NCBI RefSeq assembly: GCF_044647545.1
Contig: NZ_CP172818.1
Direction: 5' to 3' (one strand)
Length of the DNA: 64,000 nucleotides
From: Escherichia coli
GTDB lineage: Bacteria; Pseudomonadota; Gammaproteobacteria; Enterobacterales; Enterobacteriaceae
Shown here: in pieces, positions 55,574 through 64,000 of the stretch
Layout: every line of letters begins with the position of its first letter
Numbering within the stretch: the stretch's first letter is position 1
Translations under genes and position numbers: made by a program
The notes under the pieces: generated by a model
The model's input: only the letters and a program-made list of their open reading frames with translations
Database searches by the model: none
What the model was told of the DNA's origin: nothing

Positions 55574-57235
55574 ATGTTGGCACAACTGACCATCAGCAAC
55601 TTTGCTATCGTTCGTGAGCTTGAGATTGATTTTCATAGCGGCATGACCGTAATAACTGGCGAGACCGGCGCGGGTAAATCTATTGCAATAGATGCCCTCT
55701 GTCTTTGTCTCGGTGGTCGCGCTGAAGCCGACATGGTGCGTACCGGCGCTGCTCGCGCTGACCTGTGCGCCCGTTTTTCTCTGAAAGATACGCCAGCGGC
55801 CCTGCGCTGGCTGGAAGAAAACCAGCTTGAAGACGGGCATGAATGTTTGCTTCGTCGCGTAATCAGCAGCGATGGTCGCTCCCGTGGTTTTATCAACGGT
55901 ACAGCGGTTCCTCTTTCACAACTGCGCGAACTGGGTCAGTTGCTGATTCAGATCCATGGTCAGCACGCTCATCAGTTACTCACCAAACCCGAGCACCAAA
56001 AATTCCTGCTTGATGGCTATGCCAATGAAACCTCTCTACTCCAGGAAATGACCGCACGTTATCAGTTGTGGCATCAAAGCTGCCGTGACCTCGCGCATCA
56101 TCAACAGTTAAGTCAGGAACGCGCCGCCCGTGCAGAACTGCTGCAATACCAATTAAAAGAACTTAACGAATTTAATCCGCAGCCCGGAGAGTTTGAGCAA
56201 ATCGACGAAGAGTACAAACGTCTGGCGAACAGCGGTCAATTGCTGACTACTAGCCAGAATGCATTGGCAGTAATGGCCGACGGTGAAGACGCAAACCTGC
56301 AAAGTCAGCTTTACACGGCTAAACAACTGGTGAGCGAATTGATTGGCATGGACAGCAAACTGTCCGGCGTACTTGATATGCTGGAAGAAGCTACCATCCA
56401 GATTGCTGAAGCCAGCGATGAACTGCGCCACTACTGCGATCGTCTGGATCTCGATCCCAACCGACTGTTTGAACTTGAACAGCGCATCTCAAGACAGATT
56501 TCGCTGGCACGTAAACATCACGTCAGCCCTGAGGCATTGCCACAGTATTACCAGTCGCTACTGGAAGAACAGCAGCAACTGGACGATCAGGCCGACTCAC
56601 AAGAAACGCTCGCGCTGGCGGTAACGAAACATCATCAGCAGGCACTGGAAACGGCGCGCGCGTTACACCAGCAACGCCAGCACTATGCAGAAGAACTTGC
56701 ACAGCTGATCACCGACAGTATGCATGCACTCTCTATGCCGCATGGGCAGTTTACGATCGATGTTAAATTTGACGAGCATCACCTGGGCGCTGACGGCGCT
56801 GATCGTATTGAGTTTCGGGTAACCACCAACCCAGGTCAGCCAATGCAGCCTATTGCCAAAGTCGCATCCGGTGGTGAGTTGTCCCGCATCGCATTGGCAA
56901 TTCAGGTCATCACGGCGCGTAAAATGGAAACCCCGGCACTGATTTTTGATGAAGTGGATGTAGGGATTAGCGGCCCAACAGCGGCAGTTGTCGGCAAACT
57001 GCTGCGTCAACTTGGCGAATCAACTCAGGTGATGTGTGTTACCCACCTGCCACAAGTCGCGGGATGTGGTCATCAACACTATTTTGTCAGCAAAGAAACC
57101 GATGGTGCGATGACAGAAACGCACATGCAATCCCTGGATAAAAAAGCGCGGTTACAAGAGCTGGCACGCCTGCTTGGTGGCAGTGAAGTCACACGTAACA
57201 CACTGGCGAATGCGAAAGAACTACTTGCGGCGTAA
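55574..57235 (+). CDS. recN: DNA repair protein RecN (SMC-like ATPase)
   Basis: Track ORF 553 aa; Walker A GETGAGKS. Confidence 0.95.
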
Positions 57236-57383
57236 ACTTTTTTCCTGCTTCACGGTCAGAGTAAACAGCAAAACGCCGTAGGACCGGAAAGCAAAAGGTT
57301 TTAAAGTGATGAAAGGTCTATTATCATCGGCATATTACAGATGAGCCACGTACTGCTCGGGCCCGAAAAGGAATCAAATCACT

Positions 57384-57725
57384 ATGCGCTGTAAAACGCT
57401 GACTGCTGCAGCAGCAGTACTATTGATGTTGACCGCAGGCTGTTCCACTCTGGAGCGAGTGGTTTACCGTCCTGACATCAACCAGGGGAATTATCTGACC
57501 GCTAACGACGTATCCAAAATACGTGTTGGCATGACGCAACAACAAGTTGCGTACGCATTGGGTACACCGCTGATGTCCGACCCATTTGGTACAAATACCT
57601 GGTTCTATGTCTTCCGCCAGCAACCTGGTCATGAAGGTGTAACGCAGCAAACGCTGACGCTGACCTTTAACAGTAGCGGTGTGTTGACCAACATTGATAA
57701 CAAACCTGCGCTGAGTGGTAACTAA
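57384..57725 (+). CDS. bamE: Outer membrane protein assembly factor BamE (lipoprotein)
   Basis: Track ORF 113 aa; lipobox LTAGCS. Confidence 0.92.
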
Positions 57726-57750
57726 TAATAAAGTTGCTCTCAAAGAGGTT

Positions 57751-57779
57751 AAAAAAGGTGCTCAATGAGCACCTTTTTT
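57751..57779. terminator. Bidirectional terminator between bamE and ratB
   Basis: Stem GGTGCTC / GAGCACC with 3-nt loop flanked by AAAAAA and TTTTTT. Confidence 0.7.
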
Positions 57780-57786
57780 CTGTCTG

Positions 57787-58077
57787 TTATTTATTCGCTG
57801 ATTTTTCTGCTCGTTGCCTGCGAAGCTCTTTCGGATCGGCAATGAGAGGACGATAAATCTCCACCCGATCGCCATCATGCACCGTATCGCTCAGTTTGGC
57901 CGGACGGCTGTAAATGCCGACTTTGTTTTTAGTTAAATCGATATCGGTACGCAATTCCAGCAAGCCACTGGCACGAATAGCTTCTTCAACCGTCGCACCC
58001 TCCTGCAGCGTCACGCGCTGCAGGTACTGCTTCTCAGGTAGCGCATAAGCCACCTCAACGGCAATTTTACCTGGCAC
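57787..58077 (-). CDS. ratB: Small protein RatB (ubiquitin-like fold family)
   Basis: Track ORF 57787..58161; internal Met at 58077 gives 96 aa; 11-bp overlap with ratA. Confidence 0.7.
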
Positions 58078-58543
58078 TGTAAACCTCTTTCGCACGAACC
58101 GTAAAAGCCTGGACCATATTAGCCGCCAGCTCTTTAAACACGCGACCAAAGGCGAGTTCAATCAACTTATTGGTAAACTCAAAGTCGAGATGAAACTCGA
58201 TACGACACGCCTCCTGGCTCAGCGGCGTAAACTTCCATCCACCGATCAATTTCTTGAACGGCCCATCCACCAGATTCATAAGAATACTTTGGTTACTGGT
58301 CAACTGGTTGCGGGTAGTAAACGTTTTGCTGATCCCAGCCTTAGAGACATCTACCGCCGCAGTCATCTGCCCAGGAGTGGACTCCAGAATCCGACTTCCG
58401 GTACAACCCGGCAAAAACTGAGGATAAGACTGAACGTCATTCACTAACTGATACATTTGCTCCGCGCTGTAGGGTACCAGTGCGGTCCGGCTAATCTGAG
58501 GCATAACAATTTCCATCAACAAAAATCCAACAAATAATATCAT
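58067..58543 (-). CDS. ratA: Ribosome association toxin RatA (SRPBCC fold)
   Basis: Track ORF 158 aa; start could instead be the internal MPQISRT Met. Confidence 0.8.
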
Positions 58544-58674
58544 TTATCCTGCTGTAAAAAAAACGCTATCCCGGCGCTGGGTAACATCGGGTTCATGCTA
58601 AGATAGAGCCTTGTCCCCCGCAGGATTGATATGGGGTGTTTTCGATTTCAGATTACCGATGATTCACGACGCTT

Positions 58675-59157
58675 ATGACGAAGAAAAAAGCACATAAACC
58701 TGGTTCAGCGACCATCGCGCTTAACAAGCGCGCCCGGCACGAATACTTTATCGAAGAAGAGTTCGAGGCGGGACTTGCCCTGCAAGGCTGGGAGGTTAAA
58801 TCCCTGCGCGCAGGAAAAGCCAATATCAGCGACAGCTACGTCCTTCTGCGTGACGGAGAGGCATTTCTGTTTGGCGCTAACATCACGCCAATGGCTGTGG
58901 CCTCCACGCATGTGGTGTGCGATCCTACCCGTACCCGCAAGTTACTTCTCAACCAGCGCGAACTGGACTCATTGTACGGTCGCGTCAATCGAGAAGGCTA
59001 TACCGTAGTGGCGCTCTCCCTGTACTGGAAAAATGCCTGGTGCAAAGTGAAAATCGGCGTCGCCAAAGGTAAGAAACAGCATGATAAACGTTCAGATATC
59101 AAAGAACGCGAATGGCAGGTGGATAAAGCGCGTATCATGAAAAACGCCCACCGTTAA
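58675..59157 (+). CDS. smpB: SsrA-binding protein SmpB
   Basis: Track ORF 160 aa. Confidence 0.95.
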
Positions 59158-59371
59158 ACCTGCACTGCAATTATTGATCCGCTCCTCACCGCGCCTCCCT
59201 CTCCGGCGGCGCGAATGCACATCTTATTGGCTATCACATCCGACCCAAATGTTGCCATCCCATTGCTTAATCGAATAAAAATCAGGCTACATGGGTGCTA
59301 AATCTTTAACGATAACGCCATTGAGGCTGGTCATGGCACTCATGAATCTGGTATACTTACCGTTACACATT

Positions 59372-59734
59372 GGGGCTGATTCTGGATTCGACGGGATTTG
59401 CGAAACCCAAGGTGCATGCCGAGGGGCGGTTGGCCTCGTAAAAAGCCGCAAAAAATAGTCGCAAACGACGAAAACTACGCTTTAGCAGCTTAATAACCTG
59501 CTTAGAGCCCTCTCTCCCTAGCCTCCGCTCTTAGGACGGGGATCAAGAGAGGTCAAACCCAAAAGAGATCGCGTGGAAGCCCTGCCTGGGGTTGAAGCGT
59601 TAAAACTTAATCAGGCTAGTTTGTTAGTGGCGTGTCCGTCCGCAGCTGGCAAGCGAATGTAAAGACTGACTAAGCATGTAGTACCGAGGACGTAGGAATT
59701 TCGGACGCGGGTTCAACTCCCGCCAGCTCCACCA
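59372..59734 (+). ncRNA. ssrA: Transfer-messenger RNA (tmRNA)
   Basis: 363 nt from GGGGCTGATTCTGGATTCGACGGG to GGGTTCAACTCCCGCCAGCTCCACCA; internal frame GCAAACGACGAAAACTACGCTTTAGCAGCTTAA encodes tag ANDENYALAA; TATACT -10-like hexamer upstream. Confidence 0.97.
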
Positions 59735-59781
59735 AAATTCTCCATCGGTGATTACCAGAGTCATCCGATGAAGTCCTAAGA

Positions 59782-59813
59782 GCCCGCACGGCGCAAGCCC
59801 TGCGGGCTTTTTT
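59782..59813 (+). terminator. Rho-independent terminator after ssrA
   Basis: Stem AAGCCC / GGGCTT with 3-nt loop (within a larger GCCCGCA / TGCGGGC repeat) followed by TTTTT. Confidence 0.65.
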
Positions 59814-59868
59814 GTGCCCTCAATTTGTCCCGCGAAGTCCGAAGAGAACTAATTAAATCCGAACCTTT

Positions 59869-59919
59869 TAGGCCCATTGATAGGCCCAACGAAAAGCTCT
59901 ATTGTTTACGTTGGGCCTA
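59869..59919 (+). promoter_or_regulatory. Repeat cluster upstream of intA (candidate Int/regulator binding sites)
   Basis: Two direct copies of TAGGCCCA (59869, 59881) and a perfect 10-bp inverted repeat TAGGCCCAAC...GTTGGGCCTA (59881..59890 and 59910..59919), 19-57 bp upstream of intA ATG. Confidence 0.4.
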
Positions 59920-59937
59920 AACGCAGGGAGACTCCCC

Positions 59938-61179
59938 ATGGCAAGAAAAACCAAGCCGTTAACTGATACGGAAATCAAAGCCGCCAAACCTAAAGATGCC
60001 GATTACCAGCTTTATGACGGTGACGGGCTTACTCTGTTAATCAAGTCCAGTGGCAGTAAGCTTTGGCAATTCCGTTACTATCGGCCTTTGACCAAGCAGC
60101 GAACCAAACAGAGCTTCGGTGCCTATCCTGCCGTCTCGCTTTCTGATGCACGTAAACTCAGAGCCGAATCTAAAGTTTTATTGGCGAAAGACATTGATCC
60201 TCAGGAACATCAGAAAGAACAGGTGAGGAATTCTCAAGAGGCCAAAACCAATACCTTCTTGTTAGTTGCCGAGCGTTGGTGGAATGTGAAGAAAACCAGC
60301 GTAACAGAGGACTATGCCGACGATATCTGGCGCTCGCTTGAGAGAGATATTTTCCCGGCAATCGGTGATATCAGTATCACTGAGATTAAGGCTCATACTC
60401 TGGTTAAAGCAGTTCAGCCGGTTCAGGCCAGAGGTGCATTAGAGACTGTTCGCCGCCTTTGTCAGCGTATTAACGAAGTCATGATTTATGCGCAGAACAC
60501 AGGCCTGATTGATGCTGTTCCTAGTGTAAATATCGGAAAAGCTTTCGAGAAACCGCAAAAGAAAAACATGCCAAGCATCCGGCCGGATCAACTTCCGCAG
60601 CTAATGCACACCATGCGTACGGCAAGTATCAGCATGTCCACAAGATGCCTGTTCATGTGGCAACTTCTAACCATCACCCGCCCTGCCGAAGCTGCTGAGG
60701 CTCGATGGGATGAGATCGATTTCAATGCTAGCGAATGGAAAATTCCTGCAGCTCGAATGAAGATGAACCGGGACCATACGGTTCCACTATCTGATGGGGC
60801 TCTTGCTATTCTGGAAATGATGAAGCCTCTCAGTGGTGGCCGAGAATTTATCTTTCCTAGCCGTATCAAGCCCAACCAACCAATGAATAGCCAAACAGTG
60901 AATGCAGCACTCAAGCGTGCTGGCTTAGGAGGTGTACTTGTTTCACACGGCTTGCGTTCTATCGCCAGTACGGCACTCAATGAGGAAGGATTTCCACCTG
61001 ATGTCATTGAAGCAGCGCTTGCTCATGTAGACAAAAATGAGGTGCGTCGCGCTTATAACCGCAGTGATTATCTTGAGCAACGTCGTCCGATGATGCAATG
61101 GTGGGCTGATCTCGTAAAAGCAGCAGATAGTGGTAGCATCGTTTTAACTCATTTGAGCAAAATTCGTCTTGTCGGATAA
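59938..61179 (+). CDS. intA: Tyrosine-type prophage integrase
   Basis: Track ORF 59902..61179; ATG at 59938 preceded by GGGAG gives 413 aa; catalytic-region motifs HGLRS and RAYNRSDY. Confidence 0.92.
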   Translation: MARKTKPLTDTEIKAAKPKDADYQLYDGDGLTLLIKSSGSKLWQFRYYRPLTKQRTKQSFGAYPAVSLSDARKLRAESKVLLAKDIDPQEHQKEQVRNSQEAKTNTFLLVAERWWNVKKTSVTEDYADDIWRSLERDIFPAIGDISITEIKAHTLVKAVQPVQARGALETVRRLCQRINEVMIYAQNTGLIDAVPSVNIGKAFEKPQKKNMPSIRPDQLPQLMHTMRTASISMSTRCLFMWQLLTITRPAEAAEARWDEIDFNASEWKIPAARMKMNRDHTVPLSDGALAILEMMKPLSGGREFIFPSRIKPNQPMNSQTVNAALKRAGLGGVLVSHGLRSIASTALNEEGFPPDVIEAALAHVDKNEVRRAYNRSDYLEQRRPMMQWWADLVKAADSGSIVLTHLSKIRLVG

Positions 61180-61186
61180 AATATTT

Positions 61187-61216
61187 ATCAGCCCAGCTCT
61201 CTGGGCTGATATTTCT
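61187..61216 (+). terminator. Stem-loop terminator after intA
   Basis: Perfect 10-bp stem ATCAGCCCAG / CTGGGCTGAT with 4-nt loop, AT-rich flanks, 8 nt past intA stop. Confidence 0.6.
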
Positions 61217-61304
61217 AAAAGATCGCACTAAATAGCTACGCGGAATAGTGCTCTACTTTCGTTTAGCCCTTTCAGAGGTAAGACATTAGGGCAATTTCAC
61301 TGTA

Positions 61305-61318
61305 TGACTGCGCAGTCA
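61305..61318. repeat. Perfect 14-bp palindrome TGACTGCGCAGTCA
   Basis: Self-complementary 14-mer in the intA-yfjH intergenic region; possible operator or part of the yfjH 3' structure. Confidence 0.4.
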
Positions 61319-61422
61319 TCGAGTCTGTGGGGTGTTGCTCCTTTTGCAACGTATCACTTGTCAATAAATAGAAAGTGTAGATGTATTAGGCGCAGCTATT
61401 TAGTCTATATGGCAAGTAGTAA

Positions 61423-62379
61423 TTATTTACTTCTTTTTTTTCTACGAACAGCGCTATCGAAAGCTTGTTTTACATCTTCATTTTTTAAAGACCATTGATT
61501 TAAAATAGTATCAACCAAAGCATCTTGACTCATTGTTGCTACACGATATTTTTTATTTTGATTATTTATCTCAAACTCTGACATTTGAATAAAATCCCAT
61601 AGCGGTTCGATAAGTTCATTAACTGCTACAACCTTATTTTTCCACCCATCATTCGGAACAGAGTCATTAATTAGCTCAACCAACTTCAGTTGAATGATAT
61701 GGTACACTTCCGCTTTGCTTTTGCCACCCTTCTTTCCTGCACTCCGCCTGACTTCTGATAATTTTTTTTGATTACAAACAGAGATGTTAAACCAAGTCAT
61801 ACCTATGCACTTATCAAATAACTCCGCAGCCCGATGAAATGCTTTAAAGGCAACGTTTTCATTTTCAGACATGATAGATTTTCCCCAGAAAAAAGAGATT
61901 GAGGCGAACATAAGGTGTGCCTTGAAAATGTCATTAATGGAAAATGGCTCGATAACAAGAGGTAAAAACGTTTCCTTGGTAAGGTTTGAACTTAGATTTT
62001 TCCAGCATTCTTGAGCTGGATCATATAATTCAGTGTATTCTTCCTTTATCTCCAGTTGCCCATTCACTGTATGGTGCCTTGTTTCCCATGGTACATCGCA
62101 GGAATATAACCTCACACGAGTACCTATTTTCTCAGAGCTCCAGAATTGCTCTCGCATTCTGCCTAGCTCAATCCGTATTTCCGGATGATCTTCCTCTAGA
62201 ACATCAGTATCCACCGCCCATTCGCATTCGGACATGTGATAGGCGAGATCACGTCGTTTTCTACAAATTTGTTCATAAAAATCATTCAGAGAAATCATAA
62301 AACCACCATAAATCAATGTATTAGAGGTTGTAAAAATTGTATTTTTGGTACATGGGTTTTTTGCCTTAAAGATACCCAT
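61423..62379 (-). CDS. yfjH: Uncharacterized prophage protein, AT-rich orphan gene adjacent to integrase
   Basis: Track ORF 61423..62499; internal Met at 62379 gives 318 aa and avoids overlap with alpA; strongly AT-rich; no motif I can assign. Confidence 0.6.
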   Translation of the reverse strand: MGIFKAKNPCTKNTIFTTSNTLIYGGFMISLNDFYEQICRKRRDLAYHMSECEWAVDTDVLEEDHPEIRIELGRMREQFWSSEKIGTRVRLYSCDVPWETRHHTVNGQLEIKEEYTELYDPAQECWKNLSSNLTKETFLPLVIEPFSINDIFKAHLMFASISFFWGKSIMSENENVAFKAFHRAAELFDKCIGMTWFNISVCNQKKLSEVRRSAGKKGGKSKAEVYHIIQLKLVELINDSVPNDGWKNKVVAVNELIEPLWDFIQMSEFEINNQNKKYRVATMSQDALVDTILNQWSLKNEDVKQAFDSAVRRKKRSK

Positions 62380-62422
62380 TAATCTCTCTGCAACCAAAGT
62401 GAACCAATGAGAGGCAACAAGA

Positions 62423-62635
62423 ATGAACAATCGATCGGCCGTTAGAATACTACGGTTACCAGCGGTTATCCAAAAAACAGGTATGGCACGGGCCACCATC
62501 TATGACTGGTTGAACCCCAAATCACCACGATACGATGCCACCTTTCCCAAAAAGCGAATGCTCGGCGTGAAATCTGTCGGATGGATTGAGGCCGAGATTG
62601 ATGAGTGGTTATCACAACGCTGTAAACTTATTTGA
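62423..62635 (+). CDS. alpA: AlpA-family prophage transcriptional regulator / excisionase-like protein
   Basis: Track ORF 70 aa beginning MNNRSAVRILRLPAVIQKTGMARATIYDW; GAGG ribosome-binding site upstream. Confidence 0.85.
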   Translation: MNNRSAVRILRLPAVIQKTGMARATIYDWLNPKSPRYDATFPKKRMLGVKSVGWIEAEIDEWLSQRCKLI

Positions 62636-62763
62636 GGGTGTTACATGAATTCATACTCAATTGCTGTCATCGGAGTGTAAACATCCTGCTATTTCCGCCA
62701 TTAATAGCGGAATAGCCATATTTGCTAAACAATTTCTTAATTTAATTAAATAAGAGGCATTGC

Positions 62764-64000
62764 ATGTTCAATGGTCGTCCTTTCCCTGTAGATGCATTTC
62801 CTAAAATTATCAGGAATGCAATTTATGAAGTGGAACAGCATACGCAGGCCCCTCAAGGTTTGATTGCTGCTTCTGCTCTTGGGGTAATTTCTCTTGCCTG
62901 TCAGAACCGGATTGATGTTTGCCGATTGAATAATCTACGTGGCCCGGTATCACTTTTCTTAATGACTCTGGCTGAATCAGGTGAACGTAAGAGTACGGTT
63001 GATAAACTGCTGATGAAGCCATTATATCAACTGGAAGAGGATTTATTTGAAAAATACACCCACGATCTTACCGCATGGAGAAATGATGAAGCAATTTTTA
63101 ATATTGAAAAAAAAGCACTGATGTCAAAACTTAAATCAGATATTCGACGTAACAAAGATCACTTGGCAACAAATGAAAGACTTAAAGAACTACTTACGAC
63201 AAACCCGAAAGCTCCAGTGAGATTCAAATTTTTATTTAACGATGCCACACCTGCAGCTATTAAAGCTCATCTCTGTGGGCACTGGCGATCAGTCGGCATC
63301 ATGTCTGATGAAGCTGGGATCATTTTTAATGGTTACACACTTAACGAGCTGCCGTTTATCAATAAGATGTGGGATGGTTCAATATTTACGGTGGAAAGGA
63401 AAAACGAGCCCGAGAAATTAATTAGAGATGCAAGAATAACACTGTCGCTGATGGTCCAGCCTAATGTTTTTAAGGGTTATATCGACAGGAAAGGAGATAT
63501 GGCAAAGGGGATTGGATTTTTTGCACGGTGCCTCATGTGCCAGCCTGCTTCAACACAAGGTAACAGAAAAATTTCCAACCCAATTTTTTCAAATGAACAT
63601 TTGCCGGTATTTCACCAACGTCTTATGGAAATTGTTAATGAGAGCATCATTAAAATTAATGAAAATAATCGCATCTGCCTCCGATTCTCTGCAGAAGCAG
63701 AAAGACATTGGATCGAATTCTACAACCAGGTCGAGTCAGAAATGAGAATGATTGGCCTTCTTTATGATTTTAAGGATTATGCTTCTAAAATGGCGGAGAA
63801 CATGGCGAGGCTTGCTGCCTTACTTCATTACTTCAGCGGTGATGGAGGCGATATATCTGTTACCGCAGTAAAAGCAGCAGTGGAGATAGTGGCTTGGTAT
63901 ATTGAAGAATACATCCGCTTGTTCTCTAAAAAAGAAGAGTTTTCTTTAGATGTTTCAGAAGCAGATGAGCTTTATTGTTGGATAAAAGATTACTGCACGC
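62764..64000 (+). CDS. yfjI: Uncharacterized prophage protein (DUF3987-like by recollection), 3' end beyond window
   Basis: Hand translation from ATG 62764 (AGAGG 7 nt upstream) is open to the window end (412 codons) beginning MFNGRPFPVDAFPKIIRNAIYEVEQHTQAPQGL; absent from ORF track because no stop lies in the window. Confidence 0.7.
   Translation, partial: MFNGRPFPVDAFPKIIRNAIYEVEQHTQAPQGLIAASALGVISLACQNRIDVCRLNNLRGPVSLFLMTLAESGERKSTVDKLLMKPLYQLEEDLFEKYTHDLTAWRNDEAIFNIEKKALMSKLKSDIRRNKDHLATNERLKELLTTNPKAPVRFKFLFNDATPAAIKAHLCGHWRSVGIMSDEAGIIFNGYTLNELPFINKMWDGSIFTVERKNEPEKLIRDARITLSLMVQPNVFKGYIDRKGDMAKGIGFFARCLMCQPASTQGNRKISNPIFSNEHLPVFHQRLMEIVNESIIKINENNRICLRFSAEAERHWIEFYNQVESEMRMIGLLYDFKDYASKMAENMARLAALLHYFSGDGGDISVTAVKAAVEIVAWYIEEYIRLFSKKEEFSLDVSEADELYCWIKDYCT

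Follow-up and report, generated by a model that had tools for sequence, protein, structure and literature searches.

The ratA-ratB gene pair, also called pasT-pasI, has been described in Escherichia coli as a type II toxin-antitoxin (TA) system, and the locus considered here is that very locus, with the same gene order and the same 11-nt overlap between the two genes. It lies on the minus strand of a 64,000-nt stretch of E. coli DNA (NCBI RefSeq assembly GCF_044647545.1, contig NZ_CP172818.1), referred to below as the window. The TA label has since been contradicted. Researchers reported that PasT/RatA gave no growth inhibition at any copy number and had no functional link to PasI/RatB, and that PasT/RatA is instead a homologue of Coq10: pasTI mutants have respiratory defects, and their phenotypes are complemented by pasT alone or by human COQ10 (Fino et al. 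2020, PMC7424257). Overexpression of the annotated ratA open reading frame (ORF) was then found to yield two proteins, initiated at Met1 and at Met14; toxicity and disturbance of ribosome profiles belong to the Met1 form only, whereas the native promoter gives rise only to the Met14 form, and with an M14I substitution neither the protein nor complementation is obtained (Fasnacht et al. 2025, PMC11988751). Most recently, a preprint described co-purification of ubiquinone-8 (Q8) with RatA, interactions of RatA with UbiF and UbiG in the bacterial adenylate cyclase two-hybrid (BACTH) assay, and a strong drop in ratB expression upon deletion of ratA (log2 fold change -6.75), ratB deletion itself being viable (10.64898/2026.05.04.722385). 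The literature thus already contains the TA claim and its refutation, along with the corrected start codon and the ubiquinone function. What is added here is evidence across genera that Met1 is a promoter element, a quantified conservation of the ratA/ratB overlap, a split of the RnfH family into basic-tailed and acidic-tailed members, and the retention of ratB after decay of ratA. Taken together, these lines of evidence make it highly probable, at roughly 85%, that the locus is a core-genome, two-gene housekeeping operon encoding a ubiquinone-carrying RatA together with RatB. It is not a TA module: the native promoter cannot produce the toxic Met1 form (PMC11988751), and the conservation documented below is of the housekeeping type.

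Two different start codons have been annotated for ratA. In the K-12 reference NC_000913.3 the gene begins at the equivalent of window position 58543, which gives a legacy ORF of 158 aa (477 nt, 58067..58543, minus strand); in other E. coli genomes the NCBI Prokaryotic Genome Annotation Pipeline (PGAP) places the start at 58504, which gives the ratA/pasT/yfjG coding sequence as it is expressed, 145 aa in length (438 nt, 58067..58504) and initiated at the ATG of legacy Met14. An earlier note on this DNA, made from the sequence alone, had set the pair at 57787-58543; both genes do lie there, but the upper bound is the mis-annotated Met1 and the real start is 58504. The legacy 5' extension from Met1 to codon 13 (58505..58543) carries the promoter -10 element, the transcription start and the 5' untranslated region, and is not translated in vivo: a sigma-70 -10 box lies within the annotated ratA ORF, primer extension and differential RNA sequencing (dRNA-seq) place the transcription start site (TSS) downstream of Met1, and an M1S mutation reduces both the promoter score and the mRNA (PMC11988751). 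In the window, AATGATATTAT contains the Met1 ATG and, at 58542-58534, an extended -10 element of the form TG-n-TATTAT; no Shine-Dalgarno sequence precedes this ATG. From the extended -10 motif, the conservation of that motif and the published mapping, we infer that the ratAB extended -10 is TG-A-TATTAT (TGATATTAT, 58534..58542, minus strand), in which the TG is formed by the last two bases of the Met1 codon, and that the TSS lies near 58526-58528. The hexamer so assigned is in keeping with the lower promoter score and mRNA level published for the M1S mutant.

Comparison across genera bears directly on how Met1 is to be read. Diverse RatB homologues were drawn from a search of a representative library, and the resulting 80 loci, each with 4 kb on either side, come from Enterobacterales, Pasteurellales, Alteromonadales, Vibrionales, Aeromonas and some Betaproteobacteria. 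All 68 loci with usable upstream sequence have an ATG aligned to that of E. coli Met14. The motif TGnTAnnnT is found 38-44 nt 5' of this real start in 44/45 Enterobacterales loci, regardless of reading frame, whereas just 16/45 have an in-frame open start where Met1 would be. The remaining 29 lack one because of a one-base shift of the motif, replacement of the ATG (for instance with GTG, so that the TG is preserved) or stop codons in the frame. The Met1 element is thus conserved as a promoter and not as a codon. The N-terminus to which toxicity has been ascribed, by the same counts, is not maintained as coding sequence.

The second feature that has invited comparison with TA modules is the overlap between the genes. 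The earlier note had reported an overlap of 11 nt, and the sequence bears this out: the ratB/yfjF/pasI coding sequence (57787..58077, minus strand, 96 aa) starts with a GTG at 58077..58075 that precedes the ratA stop codon TAA at 58069..58067, with ratB in the +1 frame, and the resulting junction at 58067..58077 is the proposed site of translational coupling. A Shine-Dalgarno sequence for ratB, AAGAGG (58084..58089), lies within the ratA coding sequence 6 nt 5' of the GTG, and (A/G)AGAGG or GAGG occurs at this position in most Enterobacterales loci. A longer, TTG-initiated ratB ORF of 124 aa (57787-58161) was rejected, as homologues start at the GTG position, which has the Shine-Dalgarno sequence. 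Wherever both genes occur, in 72 gamma- and betaproteobacterial loci, the ratB start position is conserved and the ribosome-binding site of ratB always falls within ratA. An overlap of 1-20 nt is seen in 68 of them: it measures 8 nt (41 loci), 11 nt (17), 4 nt (five), 17-20 nt (four) or 1 nt (one). The other four are only apparent exceptions, as a different choice of start codon restores an 11-nt overlap in each. Persistence of the short overlap in 68/72 loci, at RatA identities down to about 35%, shows that it is not due to chance. The overlapping layout resembles that of a TA module, yet it is common among ordinary operons, and its conservation would be consistent with translational coupling in an operon whose products are needed in fixed stoichiometry. 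Natural RatA-RatB fusion proteins were also sought as a sign of physical association, and none of the candidates was usable: P0004, P0121 and P0123 are gene calls on E. coli-like sequence that are frameshifted or chimeric, and P0225 joins a RatB-type domain to a kinase-like region unrelated to RatA. The last of these, a metagenomic protein of 428 aa, has the basic tail of RatB and about 340 aa with a kinase-like HRDLDPKN motif, and is a candidate fusion or a gene-calling artefact.

The distribution of the locus is equally unlike that of a mobile, patchy or multi-copy element. It is carried by 5424/5426 complete E. coli genomes, chromosomally and at a median of one copy, with the genes annotated as ratA and yfjF, and the 2 kb at 57300-59300 are 100% identical to several E. 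coli chromosomes. The gene order smpB, ratA, ratB, bamE, recN, in which ratA and ratB point away from smpB and towards bamE and recN, is intact in 55/80 genomes from several orders, and the adjacency, order and short overlap of ratA and ratB are kept in 72/80 loci. A conserved RnfH-START-SmpB-SmpA neighbourhood was in fact described in 2006 (PMC1779556) and again in 2014 (PMC4131195). Core-genome presence and fixed synteny, together with an unconserved Met1 and the survival of ratB beyond ratA described below, argue against a TA module.

The protein products are readily placed. RatA matches Pfam Polyketide_cyc PF03364 of the SRPBCC/START group (E 1.3e-38, legacy residues 23-148), which upholds both the identification of ratA and the fold given in the earlier note, and aligns with Caulobacter CC1736 (PDB 1T17; E 1.7e-19 over residues 7-143). 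It thereby shares the SRPBCC/START domain of the Coq10/CC1736 family. Unlike mitochondrial Coq10, RatA is soluble or peripherally membrane-associated, with neither mitochondrial targeting nor a membrane anchor (10.64898/2026.05.04.722385), and in beta- and gammaproteobacteria its gene is coupled to a downstream RnfH-family gene, a partner that Coq10 does not have. That downstream gene encodes RatB, which matches Pfam Ub-RnfH PF03658 (E 1.9e-35) and NCBIfam NF002490, 'RnfH family protein'. Names in the databases conflict: in NC_000913.3 (2754008-2754764) ratA is a 'ribosome association toxin' and yfjF a 'putative component of the Rsx system', the corresponding PGAP names (NZ_CP033850.1) are 'type II toxin-antitoxin system toxin RatA' and 'RnfH family protein', and some newer records name homologues 'ubiquinone-binding protein'.

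A coherent sequence of events can be proposed for the operon, building on gene identities, an overlap, a promoter and start site, Q8 binding, native non-toxicity and core-genome behaviour that are established here or in the literature. A sigma-70 promoter with its extended -10 over the legacy Met1 launches an mRNA that begins inside the legacy ORF. Translation from 58504 then yields RatA, a 145-aa protein of the SRPBCC/START type that corresponds in bacteria to mitochondrial Coq10; it binds Q8 and would ferry this from the soluble complex of Ubi biosynthetic proteins to the inner membrane in support of aerobic electron transport. A ratB start 11 nt before the ratA stop, with a Shine-Dalgarno sequence of its own, makes re-initiation on ratB possible, and ribosomes ending ratA would re-initiate there, ratB also depending on ratA transcription; the transcript ends at a bidirectional terminator common to ratB and bamE. 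RatB, finally, may act as a protein-docking adaptor connected with respiratory or redox metabolism whose role extends beyond RatA.

Evidence for such a wider role comes from the Pasteurellaceae, in which the two genes have parted company. Eight loci from this family (Haemophilus spp., Rodentibacter spp., Cricetibacter and Aggregatibacter segnis) carry ratB without ratA, the latter being deleted in seven and reduced to pseudogene fragments in one. In A. segnis (L056:3720-4005) a 405-bp gap 5' of ratB holds sequence matching ratA residues 43-75 and 109-143 at about 70% identity (E 4e-17), the remains of a decaying pseudogene, whereas A. kilianii (L049:3577-4008) has an intact ratA with an 8-nt overlap with ratB. 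A search with the A. kilianii RatA returned many Pasteurellaceae genera among its named homologues and no Haemophilus sensu stricto or Rodentibacter. A published survey concludes that some Pasteurellales have lost ubiquinone, and its Table S1 lists A. segnis, Rodentibacter heylii and a Haemophilus sp. with a menaquinone pathway and essentially no Ubi proteins (PMC11707229). Across the 4 kb on either side that was compared in each genome, and with a partial match of species to that table, loss of ratA alongside loss of ubiquinone would fit a ubiquinone-dedicated, Coq10-type RatA. RatB in the ratA-less lineages, however, keeps all the family-invariant residues, with dN/dS (the ratio of nonsynonymous to synonymous substitution rates) of 0.04-0.36; for the one Rodentibacter pair, which is unsaturated, dN is 0.016 and dS 0.317. 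In all eight loci, then, ratB remains intact where an orphan antitoxin would be expected to decay, and purifying selection after the loss of ratA is unlike the behaviour of a dedicated antitoxin; RatB appears to have a function under selection for which neither RatA nor ubiquinone is required. The Haemophilus influenzae protein HI0395 (PDB 2HJ1) is a RatB orthologue (E 3e-28, alignable over residues 4-88). Unlike E. coli ratB, the ratB genes of the retrieved Haemophilus, Rodentibacter, Cricetibacter and A. segnis loci stand without ratA; the H. influenzae locus itself is not among these. In Pasteurellaceae (L050:2042-3588, L054:4001-5535 and other loci) ratB is located between pth/ychF and a JmjC + ROXA-like winged-helix gene of the ribosomal oxygenase family, followed by xseA, and in both Rodentibacter loci the ratB stop overlaps the start of the JmjC/RoxA-like gene by 4 nt. 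This constitutes a second translation-related neighbourhood of ratB, besides smpB/ssrA.

These observations prompt a more novel reading, a tentative one, namely that RatB is not an accessory of RatA at all but a free-standing, basic-tailed beta-grasp adaptor with a conserved role of its own, possibly docking on the Rsx/Rnf redox complex or forming a link between respiratory or redox state and translation termination. It draws on the survival of ratB after ratA decay, on the 4-nt overlap with the RoxA-like gene in Rodentibacter, on the neighbourhood with smpB/ssrA, which is among the most conserved for smpB, and on a stop-codon readthrough phenotype: in a screen of the whole Keio collection that gave only 30 hits, knockouts of yfjF, rsxBCDE and ubiEFH all altered readthrough, the yfjF knockout lowering it, although this knockout was not complemented (PMC10570021).

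The same screen, in which ratB, rsx and ubi genes appear together, is suggestive for a further alternative, in which RatB would supply the missing 'RsxH/RnfH' subunit of the Rsx (Rnf-type) complex of E. coli and would sit beside ratA for no reason other than a common respiratory theme. The label given to yfjF in NC_000913.3 points the same way, as does the persistence of ratB in ubiquinone-less Pasteurellaceae, and the structural likeness is close. In its AlphaFold (AF2) model RatB has a mean predicted local distance difference test (pLDDT) score of 88 over the whole chain, with a confident beta-grasp core (residues 4-75) and a less confident C-terminal helix (82-94). Its homologues in the PDB include 2HJ1 (E 3e-28) and 8AHX chain H (E 1.4e-13), the RnfH of Azotobacter vinelandii Rnf1, on which the RatB core superposes with a root-mean-square deviation (rmsd) of 0.7 A over 70 columns, 44% identity and a template-modelling (TM) score of 0.95 on the target. 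As a subunit of that complex RnfH is cytoplasmic, carries no cofactor and makes contact with both RnfC and RnfB (PMC12174285), and RatB is likewise small, cofactor-less and cytoplasmic, with the same PF03658 beta-grasp core. The two nonetheless differ in gene context and in their tails. The RnfH that is encoded in an operon is found in rnfABCDGE-H beside nifHDK and ends in ...YQRITRVLDDDDDDDD, a run of 6-10 aspartates, whereas the RatB clade has a near-invariant basic tail, ...YRPLxADPKExRRxRA, in E. coli the basic helix D81-P82-K83...R86-R87, and its gene follows ratA, far from rsx; no rnf or rsx gene was found within 4 kb of ratB in any of the 80 loci. As judged from sequence, the opposite-charge tails split PF03658 cleanly into sister subfamilies, which probably have different partners. 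With no rnf/rsx genes nearby and a separate basic-tailed clade, RatB is therefore best viewed as a paralogous subfamily (UPF0125/YfjF) and not as an Rnf subunit itself. The Rsx assignment is putative, and this alternative is unlikely.

It is also unlikely that RatB has no functional tie to RatA whatever and that the overlap records mere genome compaction, with unrelated genes placed under one promoter. Such an account would explain why ratA alone complements all ratAB/pasTI phenotypes (PMC7424257, 10.64898/2026.05.04.722385) and why each gene can occur by itself, solitary ratA being common outside beta- and gammaproteobacteria (PMC7424257) and solitary ratB occurring in Pasteurellaceae. Adjacency is nevertheless kept in 72/80 loci spread over Enterobacterales, Vibrionales, Alteromonadales, Aeromonadales, Pasteurellales and Betaproteobacteria, and conservation this long-lasting is usually a sign of shared function or of a requirement for matched stoichiometry.

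Several further points weigh against a housekeeping operon. Norton & Mulvey (2012) reported that PasT overexpression arrests growth and that PasI co-overexpression rescues it, mapped the toxicity to the first 9-13 residues, and linked the N-terminus to persister formation (PMC3464220). Binding of RatA to the 50S subunit was described by Zhang & Inouye (2011), as summarised in the preprint (10.64898/2026.05.04.722385), and the NCBI protein-family model and many records still say 'type II toxin-antitoxin system toxin RatA'. In addition, a sigma-70 promoter scan did not call the ratA promoter, the -35 region of which is poor; the evidence for a Q8 shuttle comes from a preprint; and an upstream promoter could yield the Met1 form under some condition. 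Of these, the rescue by PasI is now explained by the artificial Met1 form, to which the toxicity has been traced (PMC11988751). The framing of RatA as a protein that blocks 70S association, repeated in the earlier note, is superseded.

The point about an upstream promoter can be cast as a conditional toxin: an upstream promoter, or read-through from the intergenic region, would make an extended, hydrophobic RatA under rare stress and so provide a lineage-specific growth brake in E. coli and its close relatives. The frame from the ATG 13 codons upstream is open in Escherichia and in 15 other loci, the preprint authors allow for upstream promoters, and the link between N-terminus and persisters would find a place. 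No full-length protein was seen, however, across growth phases, three weeks of stationary phase, anaerobiosis and the stresses tested (PMC11988751, 10.64898/2026.05.04.722385); Met1 lacks a preceding Shine-Dalgarno sequence; and the in-frame ATG is largely a by-product of a fixed spacing of 38-39 nt between -10 and start, destroyed by a 1-nt change of spacing or by stop codons in 29/45 Enterobacterales. A conditional toxin is accordingly very unlikely. The original proposal of a genuine type II TA system, in which RatA binds 50S and blocks 70S formation while a labile RatB antitoxin is co-made through the overlap, can appeal to the growth arrest and shifted ribosome profiles upon overexpression of the 158-aa ORF (Zhang & Inouye 2011 as outlined in the preprint, reproduced in PMC11988751), to the PasI rescue in liquid culture (PMC3464220), to the compact layout and to persisting database names, but is already largely refuted and now barely credible, as the toxic species needs a start codon upstream of the native TSS (PMC11988751), no toxicity was observed by Fino et al. 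and ratB deletion is viable, neither a RatA-RatB complex nor neutralisation was seen in the original study according to the preprint's account, the locus is single-copy and fixed in synteny across orders as mobile TA loci are not, coding capacity is not conserved in the Met1 extension, and ratB is under purifying selection where ratA is lost. The earlier note's likening of the pair to a TA module falls with this proposal, and its caution that RatB is not a proven antitoxin was well placed.

The surroundings of the operon are E. coli chromosome. The gene order at 57.3-59.8 kb is recN, bamE, yfjF (ratB), ratA, smpB and ssrA, with the pair on the minus strand between smpB and bamE, exactly as the earlier note had placed it from ORFs, a placement now confirmed by Pfam matches. 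Convergent to the operon and downstream of it is bamE (smpA; 57384..57725, plus strand; PF04355, E 1.2e-27), divergent and upstream is smpB (58675..59157, plus strand; PF01668, E 1.5e-57), and smpB is followed by ssrA, the tmRNA gene (59372..59734, plus strand; found by ARAGORN and by Rfam at 292.8 bits). An Rfam scan of 57000-60000 returned the tmRNA only, the intergenic regions containing no known regulatory RNA. Between bamE and ratB a terminator scan located a bidirectional intrinsic terminator (57751..57779, both strands) with a 13-bp perfect stem between A6 and T6, starting 8 nt past the ratB stop; on the ratB strand its RNA fold has an energy of -18.3 kcal/mol (z = -4.6), and none of 200 shuffles was equally stable. 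The scan gave five terminator-like matches against 2.4 +/- 1.4 expected. One of these, at 58200-58185 inside ratA, has a weak 5-bp stem and was taken as chance; another at 58578-58562, also with a weak 5-bp stem, was taken as chance or as part of the T-rich sequence upstream of the promoter.

The divergent smpB/ratA control region (58544..58674) was noted as a shared promoter region by Iyer et al. (2006, PMC1779556), and has a T-rich stretch 5' of the ratA -10. At 58562-58578 on the minus strand this stretch combines the weak hairpin with a T8 run just 5' of the ratA -10, and the T-rich character is conserved in Enterobacterales. There is no minus-strand gene upstream for it to terminate, and it may be a -35/UP-like element or a barrier to read-through from the smpB side. 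On the plus strand, TGCTAAGAT at 58596-58604 is a candidate extended -10 for smpB, conserved across Enterobacterales, where it appears in the alignment on the opposite strand as ATCTTAGCA(T/C)G; it would place a candidate smpB promoter back-to-back with that of ratA.

The window is not K-12 DNA. Its RatA is identical to the K-12 protein and its RatB carries S65T, and the backbone from 56779 to 59691 (2.9 kb) has 47 differences from K-12 MG1655. The island past ssrA (59735-64000; intA, yfjH, alpA and yfjI of the cryptic prophage CP4-57) is by comparison 100% identical to E. coli K-12, its GC content dropping beyond 61 kb from about 0.50 to 0.38-0.42, and most of it is present in only 382/5426 genomes. 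As the prophage is identical to that of K-12 while the adjacent backbone differs at 47 sites, it looks as if CP4-57 has been shared horizontally between otherwise diverged backgrounds.

The ratA-ratB locus holds a warning for genome scans, in that a reference start codon and a family name have together spread a function derived from an overexpression artefact, and comparison of sequences across genera is alone enough to reveal the supposed start codon as a promoter element. It also draws attention to RatB/YfjF, a conserved ubiquitin-fold protein present in most beta- and gammaproteobacteria, for which the natural loss of ratA in lineages that keep ratB offers a handle for separating the role of RatB from the handling of ubiquinone.

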